Origin: Candidatus Microgenomates bacterium
Lineage (GTDB): Bacteria > Patescibacteriota > Microgenomatia > UBA8517
DNA: 64,000 nt
Reading direction: 5' to 3'
Assembly (NCBI GenBank): GCA_049519355.1
Contig: JBEKQV010000003.1
Span: 83,646 to 147,645 of the forward strand
Below, piece by piece: positions 44,334 through 63,506 of this stretch. The position numbers and the translations under genes are program-made. The notes under the pieces were generated by a model that had not been told where the DNA came from, made no database searches, and saw only the letters and a program-made list of their open reading frames with translations. Position 1 is the stretch's first letter. Every line of letters starts with the position of its first letter.

Positions 44334-44852
44334 TTAATCCAACGGGTGCTCAACAGAACTTTTGAAACCCGGGGCGGGGTTTTCGGGAACAATTTGAGAA
44401 GCCGCTTTTCTAATAGCAGCCATATTCATATTCACCTTTTCACCCATATTTCTATCGAAGTAATGATCCAAGCGGTCATTAAGGATATCAATTAGGGTAT
44501 TATCCTTCATGTCCTGTGACTGTATTCCTATTTTTTCGCAAATAGAAGCTTTTATCTCCCCGAAGATGGTGATTGAGTTTGCCTTTTCAGCACCACTTTT
44601 AGTAGCAGACTGGTACAGGCTCATCACTCTTCCAAGAACTACGGCATCAAGATAAGACCTAACTTCGGGCATTTGCTGTATAGCAACAAAGGCCCCTCCC
44701 TCACCGCCGGCAGCCAGCTGTGGTAGTACGTGTGCATGGGCCAAACCCAGGTCAAAGACAGCACTAGCCTCAGAAATATTAAGTTCTGTGCCGGATTGAA
44801 TCTTCTGGCCGATAGCTTTATAATCGAATGGCAATTTAAGCTCAGGTGACAT
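44334..44852 (-). CDS. Hypothetical protein (GC content visibly above surroundings)
   Basis: 172-aa ORF. No motif recognised. Confidence 0.35.
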   Translation of the reverse strand: MSPELKLPFDYKAIGQKIQSGTELNISEASAVFDLGLAHAHVLPQLAAGGEGGAFVAIQQMPEVRSYLDAVVLGRVMSLYQSATKSGAEKANSITIFGEIKASICEKIGIQSQDMKDNTLIDILNDRLDHYFDRNMGEKVNMNMAAIRKAASQIVPENPAPGFKSSVEHPLD

Positions 44853-44900
44853 AATTGTATAGGGAATTTTACACTATAGGAGAAGAAAGTCAATATTTTT

Positions 44901-45491
44901 ATGTTTCGCGATACAGAAGGGCGTACCGGCCCATACATTCAGGCAAATTTTAATCCGGACAGCCAACACTTTGGCGAGATGCTCCGGAGATCGTCTTTTT
45001 CCATTCTCGATGTGGGTTGCGGCGAGAAACCAAGACTTTCTTGGGCCTTGAGTGCGGGTGATCTTTGGGTGGGTTGTGATCCTGCAGCCACAAATGGAAT
45101 CGTAATTAAAGGCGAACGCCCGGTCAGGCAAAGCGCAGGTCTCGTCGTTTTTCCTTACACGGCAGATGAAATTCCCCTTTTCAAACCGGATGTCATATCA
45201 GTTATCGCACCCAATCAGGAGGACATCGTCAAAGGGCGCGTTTTCAACGACGGATTGGAGAAACTTCTTGATCCGGGAAAGGAGCAAACAATGGTTGTTT
45301 TATTAGATACAAGAACGCATGAATCACAAACTTTTCAGGAAGAGGCGAAACACTTTATAAGCAGATGGAGAAGGGAAAACGGATTCAAACCTGATGCCGA
45401 AAATCCGGTTTTGGATAAATTCAGACTCAATTCGGCTGATGCCGGGGCAAAAAATATTCGTTTTTGTTACATCCGCAACTCCTCACGATAG
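44901..45491 (+). CDS. Hypothetical protein, weakly class-I SAM-methyltransferase-like (ILDVGCGEKP)
   Basis: 196-aa ORF. A Gly-rich motif-I-like ILDVGCG is followed by an acidic residue spacing. GC-rich relative to neighbours. Confidence 0.3.
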   Translation: MFRDTEGRTGPYIQANFNPDSQHFGEMLRRSSFSILDVGCGEKPRLSWALSAGDLWVGCDPAATNGIVIKGERPVRQSAGLVVFPYTADEIPLFKPDVISVIAPNQEDIVKGRVFNDGLEKLLDPGKEQTMVVLLDTRTHESQTFQEEAKHFISRWRRENGFKPDAENPVLDKFRLNSADAGAKNIRFCYIRNSSR

Positions 45492-45543
45492 GCAAAATAG
45501 CAACGATTGCTGATATAATATAGCCATAGGCTGGCACACTCGT

Positions 45544-45614
45544 AGGCCGATAGGTAAATGGTATACCGGTGGTCTCCAAAACCATCATTGGGGGTCCGAT
45601 TCCCTCTCGGCCTG
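45544..45614 (+). tRNA. tRNA-Trp (anticodon CCA), 71 nt, T-loop TCCGATT (C at position 55), 3' tail G-CACC (no CCA)
   Basis: Acceptor AGGCCGA/TCGGCCT, D arm GGTA-AATGGTA-TACC, anticodon stem GTGGT/ACCAT with loop CTCCAAA (identical to the E. coli tRNA-Trp loop), variable CATT, T arm GGGGG-TCCGATT-CCCTC, discriminator G. Confidence 0.75.
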
Positions 45615-45630
45615 CACCTTAGTTTCAAAA

Positions 45631-46335
45631 TTACGATTTAAACACATCAATACCGTGAAGCGTTAACTCTCCGCTTTTATTCTTAGTTCTACGTAATTGT
45701 TCATTCTTCTTAAGCATTTTTCTATAAACTCCAGGCAGTTTTCTTCTCAAAAATACTTTGGTCCCTTCATAGGCCTTATATTCCCATTGGTATTTTGAGC
45801 TGTTCAGTCGTTTCACAAGCCTCTGTACCACTGGATCATCATACTTATTTATAATACCTTCAATCGATATAAAGCTTGTGCGAATTTCTCTTGGGACACT
45901 AGATAAAATATCTCTGACAAATTTTTCGTGTGTTCGGAAAGAAATACTCGCAACGTTTGACCATCCTTTCTCTTTACTAAGTTTTGAGAGTGTTCCTATT
46001 TCCTCCTCTGTATTATATTCTTCTTCATTCATGAAAATATTCTCTTTTGGTACATTGTATTTATTCACCAACTCATCCATTATTACCGATGCTGTAGAAG
46101 GATACGATGGCCCCTTTACTTTTCCCCCAACTACCACAATGTTCCTTGCTAATCCCTCATAATACAAAAGCGCTGCTGCTCTGGCCGCTAAACGGGAGCG
46201 AAGGCTTCCTTTAAAGGGTTCTTGCTCGGCTGAAGGGTCTTTTATTCGTGAAATCAAAAAGCTATGGACCAATATTGCATCAAATTGCGGTCTTTGCTCC
46301 GTTTCTACAGTTGGATTTACACTTTCGCCTTCCAT
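45631..46335 (-). CDS. DUF218 (YdcF/SanA/ElyC-like) domain protein
   Basis: DAILVHSF...LRSRLAARAAALLYYEGLARNIVVVGGKV and STASVIMDELVNKYNVPKENIFMNEEEYNTEEE match the DUF218 core. Confidence 0.5.
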   Translation of the reverse strand: MEGESVNPTVETEQRPQFDAILVHSFLISRIKDPSAEQEPFKGSLRSRLAARAAALLYYEGLARNIVVVGGKVKGPSYPSTASVIMDELVNKYNVPKENIFMNEEEYNTEEEIGTLSKLSKEKGWSNVASISFRTHEKFVRDILSSVPREIRTSFISIEGIINKYDDPVVQRLVKRLNSSKYQWEYKAYEGTKVFLRRKLPGVYRKMLKKNEQLRRTKNKSGELTLHGIDVFKS

Positions 46336-46526
46336 ACCGAAATTATACTACGGCAGTACTATAAGGAAAAACCGGTTGAGGATTAAGAAACTTCTGAACT
46401 TTATCTATATCAAACAGGCTCATACTATTCCAGATTGTTCGAAGTTCGGCTACTAAGGCCTGCAAAACTAAATAATCTATTCTCTTCTCTTGATTATTTA
46501 GCCTCCCTAATATAGACTTCCCCAAA

Positions 46527-47096
46527 ATGGGAAGCGAAATTATCCTAAGCTCAAAAGAGCTAATTCATGGAACAACAATCACCGTAAATCGCCTTAGAGT
46601 CACGGGTGCTAATCACTTTGGCAGACCGAAAACGGAAATGGCTGATACGCAAACATTTCAAGACCTCAGAATAGCATTAGTTTGGGTGGCCGAATCACCT
46701 GAGTACTCACACTACTTTAGCATCCCACTTACCGGTGTCCAAATATCCGGAGAGTTATTTGGACCCAGGTATAAAGATCACGAAATGTTGGCCATTAGAC
46801 ATAACGGCAAGGTTGGTGAATCTATGAGGGATGTAGAAGGGCATCATGGTGTCTCAACGGATCACAGCGATGATTTTTTCGATTTAATAGTCAATCTTGA
46901 GCCAAACCAGGGTCCTCTTTTCGACCGCGGTGTCGTGTGGGTTGATATAGCCAAAAAAAACCCTGACCCTTTATTGAAGTTTCATATTAACGCAGGTATT
47001 CACACTCCAGAAGAGATAGAGGCGGGCATAACCCAAATGGCATCACGGGTAAACCAAGTTTTAGGCAATCTGGTTCAGGGAATGGGAATCCTATAA
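46527..47096 (+). CDS. Hypothetical protein
   Basis: 189-aa ORF. No motif recognised. Confidence 0.35.
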   Translation: MGSEIILSSKELIHGTTITVNRLRVTGANHFGRPKTEMADTQTFQDLRIALVWVAESPEYSHYFSIPLTGVQISGELFGPRYKDHEMLAIRHNGKVGESMRDVEGHHGVSTDHSDDFFDLIVNLEPNQGPLFDRGVVWVDIAKKNPDPLLKFHINAGIHTPEEIEAGITQMASRVNQVLGNLVQGMGIL

Positions 47097-47145: not shown

Positions 47146-48162
47146 TTACTTCTCGACTCCAAACCTCTTCACTGCTGAGGATATAATTTCACCAACCACC
47201 TTCACCGGGGTAAACCCTGCAACCCTCGCCGCGAGAGGAAAATAACTTGTTACGTTTGGATCGAAATTAAGGCCCGGGAGAGTGTTAACTTCGAGGAAAT
47301 AAAGCCTTCCTTTTTTGTCCATTCTATAATCAATTCTTGCTGCGTCTCTAACATTCAAAAAGTCAAAAATTGTCAACGACGTCGATTCAATTAATTCTTT
47401 CTCCTTTTTTGTAAGATGAGCCGGACAGTCGTAGGCATCCGACAGGTTTTTAAGTTTATCCTCAAAAAACCATTTTAATTCATACCCTGCAATTTTTTTA
47501 TAACCCTTGGGAAGAAAGTCAAATTTTTGCTCGACAATCGGTAAAACCCTCGGTTTTCCTCCCAAAAGGGCCACCGTGAATTCCCGCCCGTCAATAAATT
47601 CCTCAACCAATGTCGATCCGAAATTTTTGATCATAAACCTTGCCCGTTCTTCCAAATCCTTTTTGTTGTCAACTACATTTTTGTCATAAACTCCTTTACT
47701 CGAGCCTTCCATGTTTGGTTTAAGGATAAGCGGAAAATTTAAATTGATATCCGAAAGCTCCTTAAGTGAACTAATTACTTCCCAATCCGGAACACAAACA
47801 TCATCGGCTTTGAGAATCTTTTTAGTAATGGATTTATTTAAACACGTCGCGTGGACGCTGGGAGTCGAATGGGTATAAGGGATTTCCAACATTTCACAAA
47901 AGATCGGAATCTGCGATTCTCTGGCATCCCCTCGAAGACCCTCGGCAATATTGAAAACCAAGTCAATCTTTCCCTTCAAACTTCTAAGTTTATCGAATGC
48001 ATCTAAGTTTGCTTCAACCATCGTAACTTCATGACCAAGTTCCTCGATCGCCGTTTTAATCAAACCGATGGTTATCGGAAAGTCAAACTCAGCATCTTCT
48101 TGCTCTTTGGGGTTAAGCGAAGGCGACCCCTTTTTTACATTAAAGGCCAGGGCAATTCTCAT
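47146..48162 (-). CDS. ATP-grasp ligase of the D-Ala-D-Ala ligase (Ddl/L-amino-acid ligase) family, divergent
   Basis: 338 aa. Ddl-like N-domain (DLVFNIAEGLRGDARESQIPIFCEMLEIPYTHS), central FPLILKPNMEGSSKGV, C-terminal REFTVALLGG...YFLEVNTLPGLN. Lacks the canonical N-terminal GGxSxEHEVS. Confidence 0.65.
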   Translation of the reverse strand: MRIALAFNVKKGSPSLNPKEQEDAEFDFPITIGLIKTAIEELGHEVTMVEANLDAFDKLRSLKGKIDLVFNIAEGLRGDARESQIPIFCEMLEIPYTHSTPSVHATCLNKSITKKILKADDVCVPDWEVISSLKELSDINLNFPLILKPNMEGSSKGVYDKNVVDNKKDLEERARFMIKNFGSTLVEEFIDGREFTVALLGGKPRVLPIVEQKFDFLPKGYKKIAGYELKWFFEDKLKNLSDAYDCPAHLTKKEKELIESTSLTIFDFLNVRDAARIDYRMDKKGRLYFLEVNTLPGLNFDPNVTSYFPLAARVAGFTPVKVVGEIISSAVKRFGVEK

Positions 48163-48272
48163 TTCATGGAGGTTATGTTAGAAGACAAAGGATCCTCGCC
48201 GTCAGAGGAAGTTGTAATAATCATAATGAACAGATTATATAACATTGGTATTTAATTAAAACAAGAAGTTAT

Positions 48273-48911
48273 TTAGGAAGCCTTCATGCCGAGTTTCCTA
48301 GGCCAATTCTCCCCTTTCGGAGCTATTATGAAAAGCATTTTTTTGTCGGTTACACTTTTCTTTCCGATTATATTTACATCCCACCATCTTTTCTCGAAGT
48401 CTTTAAGTTTAAACTTTCTGTCAACCCCGGCGAATTTGAAAAAGGGATCCGCAAGTCTTAGATAACCCGCTTCTCTATTTACCCTGGTCACCACACAGTA
48501 ATGACCATTGTCGCCATCCGCGTATTCGTAGAAAACTCCTTGCCACTCGACTCCCACAGGATACTGGTACTTATTTACAATTAGGGATAGGTTGGAAATC
48601 GTAGAATTGGCCTTCCTCCAAAAAACAAACTTGCCCTTGCCGAGTTTTTTAACCGACGACCCTAATTCGTCGACGTTCAAACCGGTGCTTTTTATCTTCC
48701 CACCGGCTCTAATCGATCTGACCACGAGCGCCTGGGAAACCTTATAACCCAAAAAGGAAAAAAGAGTTTCAATTACGGCCGGCCCGCAGTGGGAAGAGGT
48801 AACTTGCTTCGCTCTTTTCATCTTGGGGAAAGGCTTGCCTACAACCTTATCCTCAAGCTGAAGCAGCCTGCGGACGAGCCTCCTGGTTTTGGGGTTTTTC
48901 TCGAGTGGCAT
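48273..48911 (-). CDS. Papain-fold cysteine peptidase, C39-like / BtrH-N-like
   Basis: Gln-x5-Cys context KQVTSSHCGPAVIETL (nucleophile Cys in C-G-x-A) and downstream DNGHYCVVTRV (GH-aromatic-hydrophobic His motif). Confidence 0.5.
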   Translation of the reverse strand: MPLEKNPKTRRLVRRLLQLEDKVVGKPFPKMKRAKQVTSSHCGPAVIETLFSFLGYKVSQALVVRSIRAGGKIKSTGLNVDELGSSVKKLGKGKFVFWRKANSTISNLSLIVNKYQYPVGVEWQGVFYEYADGDNGHYCVVTRVNREAGYLRLADPFFKFAGVDRKFKLKDFEKRWWDVNIIGKKSVTDKKMLFIIAPKGENWPRKLGMKAS

Positions 48912-48946
48912 AATTGGCCTATTCTAGGACTAGAAGTCAAATTTGT

Positions 48947-50023
48947 CTAGACGAGACCTTTAGCGTACTTGGAAAGAAGACTTGCCATAATTTCCGAAAA
49001 CTCGACATTGTACATCGCCATTACCTCCGTCATCGGAAGTCCCATATCAGGACCGAACGCCGTATTGGGATTACTGTCTGTAAAATACGGAGTTGATGTT
49101 TCCTCATCAACTCGGACATCAAACTTGGCATAATCATTATGCTGGAGTCCGCCGAAAGCCCTAACCGCAAGTTTTGTAATTTCATATCTAAGATCATCCT
49201 CCACCGGAACATACTTATATGCTTTTTCGTCTTCGTATGATTCAAAACTGGTGAAGAAATGTTTGCCGTCGGGTTTCTTCCTGAAAACCTTTTGTGCCAT
49301 AAAGACATGGCGCTTTGTACCGTCATCAAAAACCACCACAGTAATTTCCGGTCCCCCTATAAACTTCTCGACAACCACCGGGTAGCGGTAAGTCGTAATC
49401 ATTTTATTAACCCTGAGCATTGCGGCCCTAAAACTTTCTTTAACGGCATGGTTATCAATACCCACACTTCCCCCGCCTTCATTTAACTTGACGATTAAAG
49501 GAAGGCCCAAATCCTCATCGATCGAGGTTCCCGCCCGGCGGATAAACTGGAAAGGAGGAGTGGGAATATCGTAAGCCATGAGAAGCCTTTTGGTCAGGTT
49601 CCTGTTGTTACCGATGATAAGCCCCTCCATTCCTGCTCCGGTATAAGGAATATTGGCAAGTTCCAGTGCCGCGGGAACGGACGGTTGAAGTTGGTCGCGG
49701 CCTTTTAGAGTATCAACAAGATTAACAACCAAATCCGGTTTATCTACCAACAAGTTTGTGTAAAAATATTGGTCTCCCGGAAGAGTTCTCACAGGAATTC
49801 CGAGTTTTCTGATTTCTTCCGAAACTTCGATCGCCCGCTCTTCGACTTCAACTTCCGCTTCATATGCGGACTTTGTAGCAAAATGTTCGCGTTGAACTGA
49901 CGAGTAAGCAACGACAACCAGACGGAATTTCTTTAAAGCATCTTTATCAACCGCAAGTTTAATTTTCTCCTTCGGAGTAGTTTTTTTTACTAAAGCTTCG
50001 TCTTCACTTTTTGAGGAGGGCAT
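48947..50023 (-). CDS. Second Ddl-family ATP-grasp ligase, divergent
   Basis: 358 aa. LPLIVKLNEGGGSVGIDNHAV, PEITVVVFDDG, and a C-terminal AKFDVRVDEE...D...N Mg-binding region. Confidence 0.6.
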   Translation of the reverse strand: MPSSKSEDEALVKKTTPKEKIKLAVDKDALKKFRLVVVAYSSVQREHFATKSAYEAEVEVEERAIEVSEEIRKLGIPVRTLPGDQYFYTNLLVDKPDLVVNLVDTLKGRDQLQPSVPAALELANIPYTGAGMEGLIIGNNRNLTKRLLMAYDIPTPPFQFIRRAGTSIDEDLGLPLIVKLNEGGGSVGIDNHAVKESFRAAMLRVNKMITTYRYPVVVEKFIGGPEITVVVFDDGTKRHVFMAQKVFRKKPDGKHFFTSFESYEDEKAYKYVPVEDDLRYEITKLAVRAFGGLQHNDYAKFDVRVDEETSTPYFTDSNPNTAFGPDMGLPMTEVMAMYNVEFSEIMASLLSKYAKGLV

Positions 50024-50046
50024 ACATTCATAATATAATATGCAAG

Positions 50047-50466
50047 ATGAAAAAAGTAGTCTTGGTTGGCGGTTGTTTCGACATTATCCATTATGGACAC
50101 ATCCACTTCCTAAAACATGCAAAAACTTTGGGTGATTATCTGATTGTGGCATTGGAATCAGATAAAAACATCAGAAGATTGAAAGGCAAAAAGCGCCCAA
50201 TTCACGGCCAAAATCAAAGACGGGAAATGCTTGAGTCTCTTAGCTTTGTCGACCAGGTGATTATTCTTAAAGATGAAATGAAGGATAAAGATTATTTTGA
50301 TTTGGTCAAAAAAGTAAAACCCCAAATAATAGCAGTAACTAAAGGAGATCTAATTATCGGAAAGAAAAAGAAACAGGCGGAAGAAATCGGAGCGGAAGTA
50401 ATCGAAATATCTAAAGTTGACTCCCCATCTACTTCCGAGATTGCCAAACTTTTGAAGATTGAATAA
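50047..50466 (+). CDS. Cytidylyltransferase-like nucleotidyltransferase (TagD / RfaE-II / RibL family)
   Basis: MKKVVLVGGCFDIIHYGHIHFLKHAKTLGDYLIVAL carries the (H/T)xGH motif and aligns with the TagD N-terminus. Start at internal ATG 50047. Confidence 0.6.
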   Translation: MKKVVLVGGCFDIIHYGHIHFLKHAKTLGDYLIVALESDKNIRRLKGKKRPIHGQNQRREMLESLSFVDQVIILKDEMKDKDYFDLVKKVKPQIIAVTKGDLIIGKKKKQAEEIGAEVIEISKVDSPSTSEIAKLLKIE

Positions 50467-51717
50467 TTAGTCCCACTTTTCCATTTCCTTTTGGGGAAGA
50501 CGGAGTTTCTTCGGAGTCAGAAAAATTAAAATAATCGCAACCACGACCACTAATCCGCCGACAATGCTAAAAGTTAATCTCTCTCCAACTATTAGCGCAA
50601 TGTATCCTGCAACCGGCGGCCAGATAACGTAAGCAACATTGGTTATGGAACTAATTAGTCCAATCATTTCTTTTCTCTCTTTTCCCATTCTAGCAACGAT
50701 ATCGGTGTAAACTCCGTCAACTAATGGATAACAAACTGCCAGTGCAATAGAGGAAAGAAGAACCATCGTCAACTGCCATGCAATAGTTCCGCTTAGCGCT
50801 AGGCCGATTAAAAATAGTCCCGCGAGAATCAATATTTTTTCACTCAGTATTTTTTTGCCTTTATAAATTCCCCAACTTGCTATGAAAACTCCCAAAAAAA
50901 TCGATGGAAACTGATAAAGAGGTAGGAAAAGTCCGCCAAGAAGATTAACACTCGCCAACTTCTCCGACCAGACCGCACCGGTTGTCCAAAAAGTTGAATC
51001 TATAATTCCTAAAAGGAGACTCAAGATAATCGCCGGCCAAATATGTTTTGAAAGTGTTAACCAGTGTTTAAGTTCAACCCAAGGATTAACCTCCTTAAGG
51101 TCTATTTGTGTAGGTGCATCATGAGAACTTTTGGTTAAAGTAAAAATAATAAAAGCGATAATTAAGCAAAGAAGAATTACTAACTCCAAATTAAAATAAC
51201 CCCGAATAAGAAGGTAGGCGGCAATCAAAGGTCCCAAAAAATAGGCTAAATTTATAAACATCCCGGCAATTGCCCAAGCACCCGAACGCATCTGGGGTGG
51301 CACTACACTTCCCATAAATTGGTAGCTGCCAAAAACGGCCAGCTCATAATAAATTCCCCAAAGAGCCATTGTTACCAGGAATATCAGAACAAATGGTTTA
51401 AACACCGAGGCCACCAAGAAAAATGAAGTCAGAGCCGATAGGATTATACTTAAGAAAATTAGGCGTCTTGTCTTGGTCGTCCGAAGCATTTTTGGAAAAA
51501 CCAAATCGGCCGCAAATCCAACAACAGACTGGAAACTTATAATTAAACCCATCACAACGGGACTGGCCAAAACCGACTGAATTTGATTTGGAGCCCAAAA
51601 ACTAATTATCGCATCGGCTAGCCGGATAAAAAAGATTGTAAAGCAATAAAGAATTACCTTCGACCAAACCACGTCCTTTGTGAAGGCAAAATGCCTACGA
51701 AAAAAAGGGGCAAACAT
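50467..51717 (-). CDS. MFS-type transporter
   Basis: 416 aa, about 12 TM helices with the 6+6 pattern and a central loop. Confidence 0.6.
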   Translation of the reverse strand: MFAPFFRRHFAFTKDVVWSKVILYCFTIFFIRLADAIISFWAPNQIQSVLASPVVMGLIISFQSVVGFAADLVFPKMLRTTKTRRLIFLSIILSALTSFFLVASVFKPFVLIFLVTMALWGIYYELAVFGSYQFMGSVVPPQMRSGAWAIAGMFINLAYFLGPLIAAYLLIRGYFNLELVILLCLIIAFIIFTLTKSSHDAPTQIDLKEVNPWVELKHWLTLSKHIWPAIILSLLLGIIDSTFWTTGAVWSEKLASVNLLGGLFLPLYQFPSIFLGVFIASWGIYKGKKILSEKILILAGLFLIGLALSGTIAWQLTMVLLSSIALAVCYPLVDGVYTDIVARMGKERKEMIGLISSITNVAYVIWPPVAGYIALIVGERLTFSIVGGLVVVVAIILIFLTPKKLRLPQKEMEKWD

Positions 51718-52273: not shown

Positions 52274-53281
52274 TTATTTTAACCTCGCTATATGAGCATC
52301 AACCATCATGTGGACAAGTTCTTCAAATGTAGTTTTTGGTTCCCAACCAAGTAGCTTTTTAGCTTTTGCAGGATTGGCAATAAGAGGACCTGTTTCAGTC
52401 GGACGAACAAATCTTTTATCAACCTCGACAAAATCTTTCCAATTCAAACCGACATAATTAAAGGCTTCCTCACAAAGTTCCTGAATAGTATGGGTTTTAC
52501 CCGTTCCGATTACAAAATCATCGGGCTCTTTATATTGCATCACCAACCACATGGCTTCTACATAATCACCAGTAAATCCCCAATCCCTTTTAGCCTCAAG
52601 GTTTCCTAAAGCAACTTTCCCGTTTTTTACAATCGGCTCTCCCTCCTCATTTAGGTGTTCCGAATTTTTAATTCCGAGTTTTGCGCAGGCCGCACCATAA
52701 GCTACCTTTTGGGTAACAAAATTCAAATGCCTTCTTGGAGACTCATGATTAAAAAGAATTCCGCAGGTCGCGAACATGTTGTAGCTTTTTCTATAAATGC
52801 GCGTCATGGAATGCGCGTAAAGCTTTGCCGCAGCGTAAGGATTGGCGGGATTAAATGGAGTTTCCTCGCTTTGGGGAATTTCTTTAACCCAGCCGTACAT
52901 TTCGGAACTACTGGCTTGATAGAATTTCGCTTCTGGTACAATATCCCAAGTCGCATCCAGTACCCTATGGGCACCTATCGCCGTAATTTCGGCAGTATGA
53001 ATAGGCTGTTTAAAACTTTCCGCGGGATGGCTTTGCGCAGCCAAATTATAAACTTCATCCGGGCGGACTTTTTGGATTGCCTCGCGGAGCGACACAGGGT
53101 CCAGAAGATCTGCCTGAATTAGATGAAGTTCATTTTGAATATGTCCTATGTTTTCATAAGCCATATTGCTGGTTTTTCTGACTGTGCCCGCAACTTCATA
53201 ACCTTTTTTGAGTAAAAACTCAGCCAGGTATGAACCGTCCTGTCCCGTAATTCCCGTAATAAATGCAGTCTTCTTCGCCAT
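52274..53281 (-). CDS. gmd: GDP-mannose 4,6-dehydratase
   Basis: MAKKTAFITGITGQDGSYLAEFLLKKGYEV Rossmann start, SDR YxxxK, full-length GMD similarity. Start at the internal Met. Confidence 0.9.
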   Translation of the reverse strand: MAKKTAFITGITGQDGSYLAEFLLKKGYEVAGTVRKTSNMAYENIGHIQNELHLIQADLLDPVSLREAIQKVRPDEVYNLAAQSHPAESFKQPIHTAEITAIGAHRVLDATWDIVPEAKFYQASSSEMYGWVKEIPQSEETPFNPANPYAAAKLYAHSMTRIYRKSYNMFATCGILFNHESPRRHLNFVTQKVAYGAACAKLGIKNSEHLNEEGEPIVKNGKVALGNLEAKRDWGFTGDYVEAMWLVMQYKEPDDFVIGTGKTHTIQELCEEAFNYVGLNWKDFVEVDKRFVRPTETGPLIANPAKAKKLLGWEPKTTFEELVHMMVDAHIARLK

Positions 53282-53435
53282 TTCAACCAAAATATTAGCA
53301 CAATTGTAATTAAAACCCAATGGACAACGGCCAGTTATCACAAATTAGCCGTGTGTAGTTTTGGTTTTGTTGTGATAAAATAAGCGCTATAGGTAGGAAG
53401 GGAGGCGAATTTACGTTAGCAAACAAAAATAACAA

Positions 53436-60388: not shown

Positions 60389-61330
60389 TTAAGAAAATAG
60401 CGATTTTAAGATGTCTTTTGTGGCATCATATTGGTGCCCCTTAGAGTCCATCCAATGCAAATCATAACCCGGATCTGTGTTAAGTTCGATTATGCAGTAC
60501 GGAGAATTTGCCTTAGTTATATCGGGGCAAATTATGTCTACACCCGAAAACCGGAGGTCAAAAAGTTTAACCGCACGCAAAACCATCTCCCTAAATTTGG
60601 GATTAACAATATTTGTTACATCCTCCACCACTCCGCCGGTGTGAATATTTGCGTTTCTTCTCATCAAAATCTTTTTTCCTTTGGAGGGAATATCGTTTAT
60701 TGTTAGATTCTGCTCCGCCAAAACTCTTTCGACTTCAAAACCCAACTTTAATGAATCTCCTCCCCGGCCGATATTATATTTGGCAACAAGCTCAGAAATT
60801 TTTGTTTTTCCGTCTCCGATAATAGCCGGCGGGACACGTCTGGCAACCGCCAAGATTTTTCCGTCAAGAACCAGGAAACGGAAGTCCTCACCCGGAAAAA
60901 ACTCTTCCACCAAAACCTCATCATAACTTTCCCGTATTTTTTCAAAAGCTTTTTTTAAAACCTCAAGATTTTCAATTTTGACAATTGCCATTTTTCCACC
61001 CAGTGAAGTATCCGGTTTGGTGACCAAAGGAAAATTTATTTTGCCGGTTTTTATTGCGGCCGAAACTTCTTTCCATTCTCCCGTTAAAATTCCTCTTGGC
61101 GCCGGGAAACCTGCATCTCTAAGAACCCTTTTTGTTAAATCTTTCCTTTTAACAATTTCAAAGTCGACTATCGAGTTAAAAGGAAAATGCTTGCCGATTG
61201 TCAAAACACTTTTACCACCTTTTGATATCTTGTAGACTCTACGGTCGGACGGATAAACCTCAACCAAATATCCCAATCTTTCGGCTTTTTCAGCAAAAAC
61301 CTCCATCAGCATTTTGTGTTTGGTTTTCAT
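60389..61330 (-). CDS. ATP-grasp ligase, cyanophycin-synthetase-N-domain-like
   Basis: 313 aa. FPLVTKPDTSLGGKMAIV, VLVEEFFPGEDFRFLVLDGKILAVARRVPPAIIGDGKTKISELV (CphA-like RVPA..GDG segment), IIELNTDPG. Confidence 0.55.
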   Translation of the reverse strand: MKTKHKMLMEVFAEKAERLGYLVEVYPSDRRVYKISKGGKSVLTIGKHFPFNSIVDFEIVKRKDLTKRVLRDAGFPAPRGILTGEWKEVSAAIKTGKINFPLVTKPDTSLGGKMAIVKIENLEVLKKAFEKIRESYDEVLVEEFFPGEDFRFLVLDGKILAVARRVPPAIIGDGKTKISELVAKYNIGRGGDSLKLGFEVERVLAEQNLTINDIPSKGKKILMRRNANIHTGGVVEDVTNIVNPKFREMVLRAVKLFDLRFSGVDIICPDITKANSPYCIIELNTDPGYDLHWMDSKGHQYDATKDILKSLFS

Positions 61331-62220
61331 AAATTTATGAGAAATTTTAAAATCTCCCTTTCAACATTGAAACCCGTGTCTCTTTTAATCGAGTTCCACT
61401 TGGGCGCCGAATTTACCTCCAAAACAAATAATTTTTTATTTTTGGTTTCCAAAATATCTACCCCCGCAATATCAATAGATAATGCTTTTGCGGCTTTTTC
61501 CGCCATACTAGAATACTTAGACGGAACTTTTTTGTAAGAACGATTTGGGGGAAGTTCTTTAGAAAATCTATTCACCCAACGCTGCGGACGAACAATAGCC
61601 GCTTTTGCTTTTTCGCCAATTACAAATACTCTAATTCTTATACTCGCCTTAATAAATTCCTGAACAATAAACCGCTCACATGTCAACTTGCGGGCTTTAA
61701 GTTTTTTGACAAGCTGGGCTAATTCCGATTGATTTCCCGGCGACCAGACCGCCCTTCCCCTTTTACCGTTAGTCCCTTTAACAACAAGAGGAAAACCAAT
61801 TTTATCCGGGGCTTTTGTAACCATCCGGCGCAAGGTCATAAACATCGTATGCGGAACAGGCACTCCACTTTCATAAAGAAGCATTGTTTCCAATCCCTTC
61901 GGCAGCGGAAGCTTAACAAACTCAGGTTTCTCATATAATCTATCCACTATCCTTATACCTCTCCTTTTGGCATAGTCGGCAACGATGGCAGCATTTTCCG
62001 TGCTATCACCCAGAAGTCTGAAATATATGACACCAAAGTCGGCTAGATTCCTATCGCCAATTTTTATAGACGATCCTTTGCCGGCAGACTCAATATCATA
62101 TTCGAGATCGCTAAAGGCCGCTATTTTCAGGTCGGTGCCAAGAACTTTTGCCTCCTTTGAAAACGCGGAAAGATTACTGACTTTTCCTCCCGTTAAAATT
62201 AAAATTTTCTTGTTTTTCAT
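61327..62220 (-). CDS. RimK-type ATP-grasp ligase (alpha-L-glutamate ligase family)
   Basis: 297 aa. FPLVVKGTNGKRGRAV, FIVQEFIKASIRIRVFVIGE, GVDILETKNKKLFVLEVNSAPKW. Small N-terminal pre-ATP-grasp domain as in RimK. Confidence 0.75.
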   Translation of the reverse strand: MKNKKILILTGGKVSNLSAFSKEAKVLGTDLKIAAFSDLEYDIESAGKGSSIKIGDRNLADFGVIYFRLLGDSTENAAIVADYAKRRGIRIVDRLYEKPEFVKLPLPKGLETMLLYESGVPVPHTMFMTLRRMVTKAPDKIGFPLVVKGTNGKRGRAVWSPGNQSELAQLVKKLKARKLTCERFIVQEFIKASIRIRVFVIGEKAKAAIVRPQRWVNRFSKELPPNRSYKKVPSKYSSMAEKAAKALSIDIAGVDILETKNKKLFVLEVNSAPKWNSIKRDTGFNVEREILKFLINL

Positions 62221-63506
62221 TCTGAATTTGGGTTAACCAAAAAACCCGCCATATCGCTTCTACCCATCAAAAATCTGTTTGACATCTTTGACCTATCCGT
62301 GACCGAAACAAAGGATTTGATTCTTTTGCCGGCAACGACATATTCCACTCCTATGACAGGCCTTGCCTGCAATCCGCCGGCGGAGCGGTATTTATCTCTC
62401 CACAAGATATTTCCCTTAACCAAAAGTCCCAATTCTTCGGCAAGTTTCTTATCTATTGAACTCCTTACGGCACCTGTATCTACCCTCGCCATAACTTTAA
62501 CCCTCTTGGATTTGTCAAAACTGTAGACCTTAATTCCCTCCAAACCTTTAAGAGTTTTAATACCTTCCTCAACCGCTCTTCTATTCTCAAACCTTCCGGC
62601 AAAAAGAGCTTTGGCGATCATAACTCCATGTTCCGCATCGGTAACATTAAGATCTTCAACCCTTTCAAGCCTCTTTTTAAGACCTTCCATATTGGCAAGT
62701 TGTATCTGAAGCCCGGGTTGTGCGTTAAGTTCCAACACCATGGGACCCTTATCGGGATGAAGCACTATATCTACTCCTGCATAACCCAACCCCGAGGCAA
62801 TTTGGGCCCGTACCGCAGTCTCCAAAATGGCAGTCCAATTGGGTATTTTTATTCCTCGGAGTTTCCTCTCCGTCCCGGGTTTGAATACAATTTGCTCTCC
62901 GTGCCAAATGGCGGTTGTGGTAATTCCCGTTGCAATGTCTACTCCGACTCCAATGGCACCTTGGTGCAAGTTCGCCCTTCCTCCACTCTCTTTTGTAGGC
63001 AAACGAAGCATCGCCATAACCGGAACTTTGTTAAAAACGATTATCCGAATATCCGGAGTCCCCCGGTATGCCCATCTCCTAAAGACTTTTGCGCGGCCGA
63101 CATATTCCTGAACGAAAGCCACATCCGGAACATTTCCCATAGAGAAAGCGCCTTCCAATATATCAAGTGTATGAAGCTTAAGATCATCAATTTTTACGCG
63201 TGTTTTCTGGGTAGTCATCCAGCCGCTATCCTTGAGCTTTTTTTTGACAACAATGATTCCCTCTCCACCCATACCGCGACTTGGCTTCAGGGCAAATTCA
63301 TCGGGAAGCGTGTTCCAATCAAACTCATAGACATCATTAGGATTCATAAACCTCTTATAAATTGCAGGGTGAGGAACTTCAGCCTTTTTGAGTACTCTTG
63401 CGGTCTGAATTTTGGAATCGGCGATAGCCTTACCACGCCTGGAATTATACCTGTAGGCAAAAAGCTGGGTTCTGGAATTCAATCCCAAAATTGAGGATAT
63501 TTTCAT
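62217..63506 (-). CDS. Fusion: ATPgrasp_ST (alpha-L-glutamate-ligase-related) ATP-grasp domain + C-terminal retropepsin-like aspartyl-protease domain (RimK-associated Zn_protease family)
   Basis: N-terminus LGLNSRTQLFAYRYNSRRGKAIADSKIQTARVL...FALKPSRGMGGEGI. C-terminal ~110 aa VKVMARVDTGAVRSSID...FLMGRSDMAGFLVNP with the D-T-G-A catalytic signature. Confidence 0.65.
   Translation of the reverse strand: MKISSILGLNSRTQLFAYRYNSRRGKAIADSKIQTARVLKKAEVPHPAIYKRFMNPNDVYEFDWNTLPDEFALKPSRGMGGEGIIVVKKKLKDSGWMTTQKTRVKIDDLKLHTLDILEGAFSMGNVPDVAFVQEYVGRAKVFRRWAYRGTPDIRIIVFNKVPVMAMLRLPTKESGGRANLHQGAIGVGVDIATGITTTAIWHGEQIVFKPGTERKLRGIKIPNWTAILETAVRAQIASGLGYAGVDIVLHPDKGPMVLELNAQPGLQIQLANMEGLKKRLERVEDLNVTDAEHGVMIAKALFAGRFENRRAVEEGIKTLKGLEGIKVYSFDKSKRVKVMARVDTGAVRSSIDKKLAEELGLLVKGNILWRDKYRSAGGLQARPVIGVEYVVAGKRIKSFVSVTDRSKMSNRFLMGRSDMAGFLVNPNSE

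Follow-up and report, generated by a model that had tools for sequence, protein, structure and literature searches.

The conserved unit at this locus is a pair of genes, LigB followed by Pep, encoding a ligase with the D-alanine-D-alanine ligase (Ddl) fold and a C39-type cysteine peptidase. Of 45 informative GTDB loci at species level, 44 had LigB and Pep side by side on one strand, in many cases with the LigB stop codon overlapping the Pep start codon; these loci came from Woese-, Gottesman-, Shapiro-, and Roizmanbacteria, together with a few Chloroflexota. The two genes were arranged alike in 73 of 75 informative metagenome loci. An earlier note on this DNA had taken ligase-peptidase-ligase as the unit. 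Our synteny survey found that arrangement in only about one locus in five, whereas LigB-Pep was invariant. At two loci (L051 and L053), an unrelated 442-aa protein follows LigB where Pep is expected. We tentatively propose that LigB and Pep work together in the cytoplasm as a dedicated synthetase/amidase couple feeding cell-envelope precursors, an explanation that we consider possible, if short of probable.

Six open reading frames of interest were all found in the window (the whole 64-kb stretch of DNA analyzed). LigB (48947-50023, minus strand, 358 aa) is the core member of the module, and Pep (48273-48911, minus strand, 212 aa) begins 35 nt 3' of its stop codon. LigA (47146-48162, minus strand, 338 aa), a second Ddl-family ATP-grasp ligase, lies 110 nt downstream of Pep. 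Divergent from LigB is a cytidylyltransferase-like nucleotidyltransferase gene (50011-50466, plus strand), with its true start probably at the ATG at position 50047; beyond it are genes for an MFS transporter (50467-51717, minus strand; MFS_1, 92.5 bits) and a GDP-mannose 4,6-dehydratase-like protein, gmd (52274-53341, minus strand; GDP_Man_Dehyd, 382 bits; TIGR01472, 371 bits, below the NCBIfam cutoff of 415). Membership of these three genes in the module is uncertain. The nucleotidyltransferase matched PF01467 in the Pfam search (62.5 bits). It had been described as TagD-like; among NCBIfam models, rfaE_dom_II (heptose-1-P adenylyltransferase) was the better match (116 bits, cutoff 181.5, versus 65.7 bits, cutoff 165, for TagD), although both scores fall below their cutoffs. 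This gene is kept beside LigB only in Woesebacteria-like loci. The MFS gene, separated from LigB by the one gene of opposite orientation, is likewise conserved only among Woesebacteria-like genomes (14 of 46 GTDB loci, 30 to 69% identity), while gmd recurs a few kilobases from LigB in several arrangements among relatives. In Woesebacteria-like genomes, including that of the window, co-transcription is clear only for LigB-Pep(-LigA), and the proximity of the other three genes may be mere synteny.

LigB is predicted to have the complete three-domain Ddl fold, preceded by a disordered Lys/Glu-rich tail (residues 1 to 16). With its AF2 model (pLDDT 83), the best Foldseek matches were DdlB and DdlA (E = 9e-22, TM 0.7 to 0.8, ∼20% identity). 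The Pfam match was to Dala_Dala_lig_C (E = 2.5e-17), and the score against the NCBIfam Ddl model NF002378 was 99 bits (cutoff, 243). Alignment of active-site columns showed that K144, E180, E187, D257, and N272 are retained, that D replaces E270, and that Glu57 is the equivalent of DdlB E15. Other Ddl positions are altered: Gly occupies the S150 position and Lys that of R255, and S281/L282 have no counterpart. There is no recognizable K215/Y216 loop, and an invariant motif, DGKHxFTSxESY, stands in place of the omega loop. A canonical Ddl (334 bits) is encoded at the same locus as LigB in two Shapirobacteria (L029 and L033). Judged from these residue losses, the score below cutoff, and the coexisting canonical Ddl, LigB is not an ordinary Ddl. 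It also evolves very slowly: identity across 43 loci averaged 75% (range, 53 to 93%), comparable to NusG and L11, and at L029 LigB was 68% identical, versus 52% for NusG, 61% for L11, and 44% for L1.

Pep is a stand-alone, cytoplasmic cysteine peptidase of the C39/C39_2 type (Peptidase_C39, 28.7 bits against a Pfam cutoff of 22). Its catalytic set comprises the oxyanion Gln36, Cys42, His137, and Asp155. The motifs quoted for it earlier, Q...C-G-P-A and the G-H-Y context, are real: Q36, C42-G43-P44-A45, G136-H137, and D155 were invariant in 25 homologues. The earlier description of Pep as a C39-like cysteine peptidase is thus right, and the enzyme is catalytically intact. From their retained catalytic residues, LigB and Pep both look active. 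The closest structural relatives of Pep are peptide and isopeptide hydrolases. With the C39/C39_2 domains of bacteriocin double-glycine peptidases and endolysins and with the pseudomurein endoisopeptidase PeiR, Pep shares the catalytic Gln, Cys, His, and Asp. Unlike those systems, it has neither an ABC-transporter fusion nor a wall-binding domain, has no Gly-Gly leader substrate nearby, and invariably has an ATP-grasp ligase as its partner. C39_2 also serves as an endolysin catalytic domain (PMC8223927).

LigA is an accessory, occasional third gene rather than part of the invariant unit, adjoining Pep in only ∼20% of loci. It matched Dala_Dala_lig_C (Pfam, E = 7e-29), NF002378 (161 bits), and Ddl structures in the PDB (E = 2e-21), and it retains E15, S150, R255, D257, E270, N272, and S281 in the active-site columns. 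A [FY]ELKW motif, with its K at the K215 position and Trp at that of Y216, was present in 115 of 120 homologues; Tyr replaces Leu282, and H63 and the Gly-rich N terminus are missing. A neighbor-joining tree placed LigA as sister to canonical Ddl, and its NCBI record names it D-alanine--D-alanine ligase. Without LigB-Pep alongside, LigA follows a GT4 gene at L047, and wherever it is apart from Pep it shares its operon with GT4, FdtA, gmd, and GNAT genes, with no mur genes among them.

The earlier note had described both ligases as Ddl-family yet noncanonical, which is borne out by the Dala_Dala_lig_C matches and by scores of 161 and 99 bits, below 243. Its statement that the Ddl N-terminal motif is missing applies to the Gly-rich part, but the E15-equivalent Glu (within A-E-x-[ED]) is invariant in both ligases. 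Checking the omega-loop Tyr and the Ser of the Ddl active site gave a divided picture: LigA keeps S150 and has Trp for Y216, and LigB has lost both. The suggestion that these are L-amino-acid ligases found little to sustain it. The lone such match was 3vot (E = 2e-7 for LigA and 2e-3 for LigB); solved Ddl/Van structures were matched at E = 1e-16 to 1e-21.

Domain fusions reinforce the pairing. On one 2.2-kb contig, a single open reading frame (P0397) encodes LigB::Pep, which might reflect a frameshift between genes that overlap. One lineage carries Pep fused to a GNAT of the RimJ/RimL family (Acetyltransf_3) in both orders, GNAT::Pep and Pep::GNAT, or has a free GNAT gene directly upstream of LigB; the GNAT is missing in most lineages, including this window. 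Envelope genes recur around the pair. In Shapirobacteria, alr-murF-LigB-Pep form one operon of overlapping genes beside ddl; at L051/L053, LigB, gmd, and LigA share one operon (LigB-X-X-FdtA-gmd-LigA); and in other lineages PBP1a or VanW-like genes adjoin the pair. Except in three lineages, the neighbors that suggest an envelope link are variable, and the link is weakened by the general richness of these genomes in envelope genes.

In our proposal, LigB would activate the carboxylate of an α-amino acid as an acyl phosphate, with Glu57 holding the free amine, and, given its remodelled D-Ala2 site, would couple it to an amine acceptor other than D-alanine. We infer that Pep works on the same bond, hydrolyzing or editing the amide made by LigB; alternatively, it may form a thioester with the acyl group before handing it on. 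The remaining free α-amine could be extended by LigA where that gene is at hand (this window, ∼20% of relatives) or, in another lineage, N-acylated by the RimJ/RimL-type GNAT. The product would most likely enter envelope precursors, either the D-Ala branch of peptidoglycan or an amino-sugar/glycan building block. The best reading is that LigB-Pep is analogous to glutathionylspermidine synthetase-amidase and acts on an aminoacyl amide. In the trypanothione/glutathionylspermidine enzymes, an ATP-grasp synthetase and a papain-like amidase act on the same amide (PMC2427367). Like them, the pair would combine an ATP-grasp C:N ligase with a papain-like Cys-His-Asp amidase, and the LigB::Pep fusion mirrors their bifunctional architecture. 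Unlike them, LigB is a Ddl-type rather than GspS-type ATP-grasp enzyme, Pep is C39_2 rather than a CHAP amidase, and the two are mostly encoded by separate genes, that of the ligase preceding. We therefore regard the likeness as one of design, not of family membership. Counting against such a couple, no regulatory rationale for a hydrolase that reverses an ATP-consuming ligase was visible at the locus.

The conservation of LigB would also be expected of an essential housekeeping enzyme, for instance one making D-Ala-D-Ala. It is possible, though unlikely, that one of the two ligases simply provides MurF with D-Ala-D-Ala (or D-Ala-D-X) in this organism, with Pep trimming or editing D-Ala-terminated precursors in the manner of VanX/VanY. 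LigA would be the more likely candidate, given its retention of most Ddl residues (including the K of [FY]ELKW), its position in the tree, and its database name; no canonical ddl was found across the 64 kb of the window plus the 10 kb flanking it on each side. LigB for its part is universal, highly conserved like an essential wall enzyme, and placed right after alr-murF in Shapirobacteria. VanA acts with VanX/VanY in a ligase-peptidase pairing that LigB-Pep echoes, and both ligases share with Ddl and VanA/B/C the full-length three-domain ATP-grasp fold, the Mg/ATP residues, and the Glu for binding the amine of the first substrate. However, LigA and LigB fall short of every curated Ddl or Van cutoff, and far short of that of Ddl; LigA has Trp216 and Tyr282, lacks H63 and the Gly-rich N terminus, and when apart from Pep keeps company with sugar and GNAT genes rather than mur genes; LigB has Gly150, Lys255, a different omega loop, and no S281/L282, and coexists with a true Ddl at L029 and L033. 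Moreover, Pep is a cysteine peptidase and not a zinc D,D-peptidase. Somewhat less likely still, the module may serve to make and turn over a free metabolite (an N-capped di- or tripeptide or aminoacyl-amine) with no direct envelope link, for instance an osmolyte like N-acetylglutaminylglutamine amide (NAGGN) or a thiol/polyamine conjugate like glutathionylspermidine or mycothiol. The glutathionylspermidine/trypanothione design, the GNAT fusions and neighbors, a degree of LigB conservation typical of a central metabolic enzyme, and the nearby MFS transporter all fit this idea, and an ATP-grasp ligase, a GNAT, and a peptidase also make up the NAGGN operon (Ngg, itself GNAT plus ATP-grasp; AsnO; and an M42 peptidase; PMC8070244). 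Yet that operon uses a RimK/CphA-like ATP-grasp domain and an M42 metallopeptidase, and here an AsnO homologue is absent and the GNAT is missing from the window and most lineages; LigA and LigB match only Ddl, not Ngg, GshB, or GspS, and the existing operon links point to alr-murF and deoxy-sugar genes.

Tagging cycles that join a ligase and a peptidase, such as tubulin tyrosine ligase/vasohibin and RimK/RimB, raise the improbable alternative that LigB attaches an amino acid to some conserved protein or joins a processed peptide to its target, with Pep as the processing or de-modifying protease and the GNAT, whose family is that of RimJ/RimL, acetylating an N terminus. Conservation of LigB equal to or above that of NusG, L11, and L1 would suit such a role. 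Against it, the Glu at the E15 position implies that what LigB activates is a free amino acid, Ddl-clade ATP-grasp enzymes are known only with small substrates, and neither a conserved small open reading frame nor a candidate target gene was found accompanying the pair. Because ATP-dependent ligases with Cys-His hydrolase subunits are an established design, Pep might instead release an amine or ammonia to feed LigB, following CarA/CarB or GatD/MurT logic, so that an amino acid or wall precursor is amidated. Tight translational coupling, the LigB::Pep fusion, and loss of the D-Ala2 carboxylate-binding residues from the second-substrate site of LigB are compatible with this scheme, which we consider very improbable: the nearest structural relatives of Pep hydrolyze peptides and isopeptides, to our knowledge no papain-fold enzyme serves as an amidotransferase subunit, and the GNAT and LigA are left unexplained. 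Least credible, and barely so, is a secondary-metabolite cluster, in which either L-amino-acid ligases would produce a dipeptide antibiotic for the MFS transporter to export or a thiotemplated pathway would operate. ATP-grasp and papain-like transacylase pairs do build the butirosin side chain (BtrJ/BtrH) and closthioamide (CtaD/CtaG) (PMC7183216); in these, too, the partner of the ATP-grasp ligase is a C39-related cysteine enzyme of clan CA, CtaG is among the structural matches of Pep, and an MFS gene is close by. Those pathways, however, are templated on carrier proteins in patchy biosynthetic clusters, whereas no carrier protein, decarboxylase, or resistance gene was found at LigB-Pep loci, the pair did not occur on viral contigs, PADLOC gave zero matches, and the ligases cluster with Ddl rather than with L-amino-acid ligases. 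The bacilysin-like cluster proposed earlier is thus unsupported, as the vertically inherited core pair sits among housekeeping genes (rnhB, nusG, L11, def, and fmt) and conservation of the MFS gene is confined to Woesebacteria-like genomes; LigB identity on a par with NusG and L11 also disfavors it.

Of the options raised earlier, the third, peptide decoration of an envelope component, is the one that the gene contexts suggest as the closest fit. LigB-Pep occurs throughout uncultured Microgenomates bacteria and is a vertically inherited core pair of a superphylum with small, roughly 1-Mb genomes. Rather than an antibiotic cluster, it looks like an undescribed module for making and breaking an amide bond.

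The genes of the region are exactly those that the earlier note had described, and their coordinates were confirmed as open reading frames. Three of them follow one another on the minus strand: LigB (48947-50023; 358 aa), a Ddl-family ATP-grasp ligase; Pep (48273-48911; 212 aa), a C39-type cysteine peptidase scoring above the Peptidase_C39 cutoff, beginning 35 nt after the stop codon of LigB; and LigA (47146-48162; 338 aa), a second Ddl-family ligase encoded 110 nt downstream of Pep. Both ligases match Dala_Dala_lig_C. Divergent from LigB on the plus strand is a cytidylyltransferase-like nucleotidyltransferase gene (50011-50466), followed on the minus strand by an MFS transporter (50467-51717) and a GDP-mannose-4,6-dehydratase-like gene, gmd (52274-53341). 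The gmd product scores 371.4 bits against TIGR01472 (cutoff, 415) and matches Pfam GDP_Man_Dehyd over its full length (382 bits). The nucleotidyltransferase had been labeled TagD-like. This label was dropped: the protein reaches 65.7 bits against TIGR01518 (cutoff, 165.4) and belongs to superfamily PF01467 only, with the heptose-1-phosphate adenylyltransferase model rfaE_dom_II scoring best (116 bits, below the cutoff of 181.5). Rfam returned no matches between 46 and 54 kb at an E value of ≤1 and tRNAs alone across the whole window, and promoter and terminator scans gave counts no higher than in shuffled sequence.

Between the tRNA genes and LigA (44334-47096) are a DUF218 protein and three conserved proteins without a family match: 172 aa (44334-44852, minus strand), 196 aa (44901-45491, plus strand), and 189 aa (46527-47096, plus strand), the first two recurring in some related loci. 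Across the window (1-64000), most genes are on the minus strand. Of its 32 bins of 2 kb, 31 have a negative GC skew, and the cumulative curve declines steadily, placing the entire window on one replication arm. At 60389-63506 on the minus strand and continuing past the window end (9126-13118 in L134), a separate cluster holds three ATP-grasp genes encoding a cyanophycin-synthetase-like protein (313 aa), a RimK-family ligase (297 aa), and a fusion of an ATPgrasp_ST/rimK-related ligase to a RimB-like retropepsin (429 aa); a 7TM_transglut gene adjoins it just beyond the window. This cluster is the known RimK-related triad, presumably the "first peptide-ligase locus" of the earlier note.

Homologous loci were compared in two sets: 46 from GTDB species representatives, fetched via Pep, and 80 from metagenomes, fetched via LigB. 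Of the informative loci, 44 of 45 in the GTDB set and 73 of 75 in the metagenome set had LigB directly upstream of Pep in the same orientation, frequently with overlapping stop and start codons. The pair occurs in Woese-, Gottesman-, Shapiro-, and Roizmanbacteria and in a few Chloroflexota bins. All other neighbors vary, and no third gene or small precursor ORF is common to all loci, which have lineage-specific partners only. Accordingly, of the proposed ligase-peptidase-ligase arrangement, the LigB-Pep portion held up, whereas LigA follows Pep in only about one-fifth of loci; what emerges from the comparison is LigB-Pep as a core pair. When a Pep profile was run against 1.84 billion representative proteins, only 406 clusters (50% identity; E ≤ 1e-3) were recovered, so the Pep family is small.

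LigB behaves like a housekeeping gene in its conservation. Across 43 loci, its mean identity to the LigB encoded in the window is 75%, compared with 83% for NusG, 77% for L11, and 78% for gmd; in L029, a distant locus from Shapirobacteria, the figure for LigB is 68%, versus 52% for NusG, 61% for L11, and 44% for L1. Pep evolves far faster than LigB (31 to 83% identity). In Woesebacteria-like genomes, the pair lies among rnhB, nusG, L11, def, and fmt. This conservation and setting indicate a core, vertically inherited function rather than a secondary-metabolite island. A mobile or viral origin and a role in defense were both considered and rejected: no LigB relatives were found in viral contigs, and PADLOC gave no matches for either protein, which is consistent with the core-gene reading.

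Pep is not invariably present as a single copy. One lineage carries a tandem Pep duplication after LigB (L035, 7367-8603). In two Blackburnbacteria-like loci (L051, 3614-4942; L053, 3608-4927), a 442-aa protein follows LigB in place of Pep and shares an operon with FdtA, gmd, LigA, and a 178-aa protein. The 442-aa protein matched nothing in Pfam or NCBIfam and nothing meaningful in the PDB, and it was not homologous to Pep by profile comparison; it may be a nonhomologous substitute. LigB and Pep are encoded as a single ORF on one 2.2-kb soil contig only (protein P0397; L136, 605-2179), where a frameshift across overlapping genes is possible. Fusions of Pep to a GNAT acetyltransferase of the RimJ/RimL type (Acetyltransf_3) are several among the Pep-profile clusters and occur in both domain orders (L129, 9058-10305; L115, 9083-10324; L114, 1141-2322; proteins P0388, P0402, P0405, and P0416). 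Where Pep is fused to GNAT, a second, paralogous GNAT gene is often found upstream of LigB. One metagenome lineage reads GNAT2-LigB-GNAT1::Pep; another reads GNAT1-LigB-Pep. GNAT and LigA are mutually exclusive: loci with GNAT are without LigA, and those with LigA are without GNAT. LigA itself is found in other settings, including the LigB-X442-X178-FdtA-gmd-LigA operon of L051 and L053 and locus L047, where it occurs without LigB-Pep and is translationally coupled to a GT4 glycosyltransferase. A third arrangement tying both ligase types together is seen in L052 (7001-9206), where the gene directly after LigA encodes a basal LigB-like ligase (38% identical to LigB) and there is no peptidase.

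We asked how far the two ligases resemble Ddl. Both score below the Ddl cutoffs of 243 bits (NF002378) and 245.65 bits (TIGR01205), with 161.3 and 136.6 bits for LigA and 99 and 94.6 bits for LigB; as a control, the canonical Ddl of L029 scores 333.7 bits. All three domains of the LigB AlphaFold model (pLDDT, 83) superpose on those of the DdlB and DdlA structures (Foldseek versus PDB Ddl: E value, 9e-22; TM score, 0.7 to 0.8; ∼20% identity). The active sites were aligned for LigA, LigB, E. coli DdlB, and a canonical CPR Ddl; numbering follows the DdlB sequence used, which agreed at all checked positions. Both ligases have the three-domain Ddl/ATP-grasp fold and keep the ATP/Mg residues K144, E180, E187, D257, and N272, with K97 and E270 retained in LigA and replaced by R and D in LigB. 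Neither has the full D-Ala1 site (the E15-S150-Y216 triad with the N-terminal GGxSxExxVS). The earlier note had called the N-terminal motif missing; its Gly-rich part is indeed absent from both proteins, but E15, which holds the first substrate by its amine, is kept in both (Glu57 in LigB). S150 is Ser in LigA and Gly in LigB. At K215/Y216, the HMMER alignment assigns LigA a K-W pair, within [FY]ELKW in 115 of 120 homologues, whereas LigB has no alignable counterpart and carries an invariant DGKHxFTSxESY segment in place of the omega loop. The D-Ala2/transition-state site (K215, R255, S281, L282) is partially matched by LigA (K, R, S, Y); in LigB, R255 is an invariant Lys, S281 is variable, and L282 is Gly. 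In a neighbor-joining tree, LigA was sister to canonical Ddl, with LigB on a separate long branch.

Pep matches PF03412 above the gathering score and carries the catalytic set of the C39 family as invariant residues (Gln36, Cys42, His137, and Asp155; model pLDDT, 86). Its sequence contains no signal peptide and no membrane segment, and its homologues are stand-alone proteins of 192 to 261 aa. Neither a fused or neighboring ABC exporter nor a Gly-Gly leader precursor was found with Pep, and no small ORF is conserved with the pair; the only surveyed locus with an ABC-transporter gene downstream of LigB (L109) lacks Pep.

Within the Ddl family, VanA with VanX/VanY offers a ligase-peptidase analogue. 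By analogy, the nearest functional precedent for LigB-Pep is glutathionylspermidine/trypanothione synthetase-amidase, in which an ATP-grasp ligase is fused to a papain-like amidase acting on the same bond (PMC2427367). The likeness is one of design only: the CHAP-type amidase and GspS-type ATP-grasp domains of those enzymes were not found here, where Pep is C39/C39_2 and both ligases match Ddl only. ATP-grasp ligases together with peptidases and GNATs are a recognized theme (PMC4431377), and the NAGGN operon combines three activities of the LigB/GNAT/Pep type likewise (PMC8070244). The literature searched, with the Iyer et al. 2009 amidoligase survey lying outside the search, gave no account of obligate pairing between a C39_2-type peptidase and a ligase of the Ddl fold; searches on ATP-grasp and C39 proteins in Patescibacteria and on operons of Ddl-like ligases with cysteine peptidases returned nothing on LigB-Pep.

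Several alternative functions were weighed. The suggestion that the ligases are L-amino-acid ligases of the BacD, RizA, or TabS type finds little support at the sequence level, since the solved examples are far more distant than Ddl from both proteins: LigA matches Ddl at 1.8e-21 and BL00235 (3vot) at 1.9e-7, LigB matches them at 2.2e-16 and 1.9e-3, and no chains named as other such ligases (BacD, RizA) were found at an E value of ≤0.001 for LigA or ≤0.01 for LigB. That LigA or LigB is the organism's working Ddl is favored by the finding of no canonical ddl in the window or in 10 kb past either end; the sole further ATP-grasp match in the window was a CphA-like gene (60389-61330). However, two loci from Shapirobacteria, L029 and L033, encode a canonical Ddl that exceeds the cutoff (334 bits) divergently beside LigB-Pep, and we consider the working-Ddl explanation unlikely. 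In L033 (1074-5922), alr, murF, LigB, and Pep overlap end to end; in L029 (4853-8621), where alr was not detected, the order is murF-LigB-Pep. A true Ddl thus accompanies LigB, even though LigB is cotranscribed with the D-Ala branch of wall-precursor synthesis. Upstream is an Hsp70/MreB-like gene.

Given the strict pairing, translational coupling, and fusions, LigB and Pep would act on one molecule. Because LigB retains Glu57, the substrate it activates would most likely be an alpha-amino acid whose amine is free; the remodeled second-substrate site of LigB suggests that this amino acid is ligated to something different from D-Ala. Pep would then hydrolyze or edit the resulting amide or transfer the acyl group from it, with GNAT or LigA capping or extending the amine left over. 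We infer more weakly that the products are destined for cell-envelope precursors, from the operon contexts (alr-murF, FdtA-gmd, GT4, and, in other lineages, PBP1a/VanW-like genes); affinities of the peptidase fold to PeiR and endolysins agree with this. A synthetase/amidase couple feeding envelope precursors is our favored explanation, held tentatively, and through these contexts it comes close to the third option of the earlier note, peptide decoration of an envelope polymer. Other readings are harder to credit: a free N-capped peptide metabolite seems rather improbable, a cycle of protein modification more so, and an amidotransferase logic in which Pep releases the amine quite improbable. 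Least probable is the antibiotic or thiotemplated cluster originally proposed, a reading that conflicts with the core, vertically inherited behavior of the pair; an acyl- or peptidyl-carrier protein, the partner of BtrH_N/CtaG thiotemplated transacylases, was not found in the locus.

A broader reading of the LigB-Pep couple, possible though somewhat doubtful, is that together with GNAT or LigA it constitutes an undescribed core pathway found in Microgenomates only, for a lineage-defining aminoacyl or peptidyl modification of a wall or glycan precursor or for a new small-molecule amide (a novel thiol or osmolyte, for instance), with the Ddl-fold ligase and C39-fold cysteine enzyme working as one bifunctional synthetase/amidase or synthetase/transpeptidase machine. 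Microgenomates are uncultured, and with genomes of ∼1 Mb, few of their conserved genes can be dispensable; LigB is conserved at the level of ribosomal proteins. The pair is routinely misannotated as Ddl and "bacteriocin exporter peptidase." Defining its product would correct this systematic error, which bears on inferring normal peptidoglycan in Microgenomates, would give the Ddl and C39 folds a new substrate class, and could expose a lineage-specific envelope feature or metabolite. The Shapirobacteria alr-murF operon and the GNAT fusions are concrete, testable entry points. If the core-pathway reading is true, both folds would acquire a novel reaction specificity, and the uncultured superphylum a novel essential trait.
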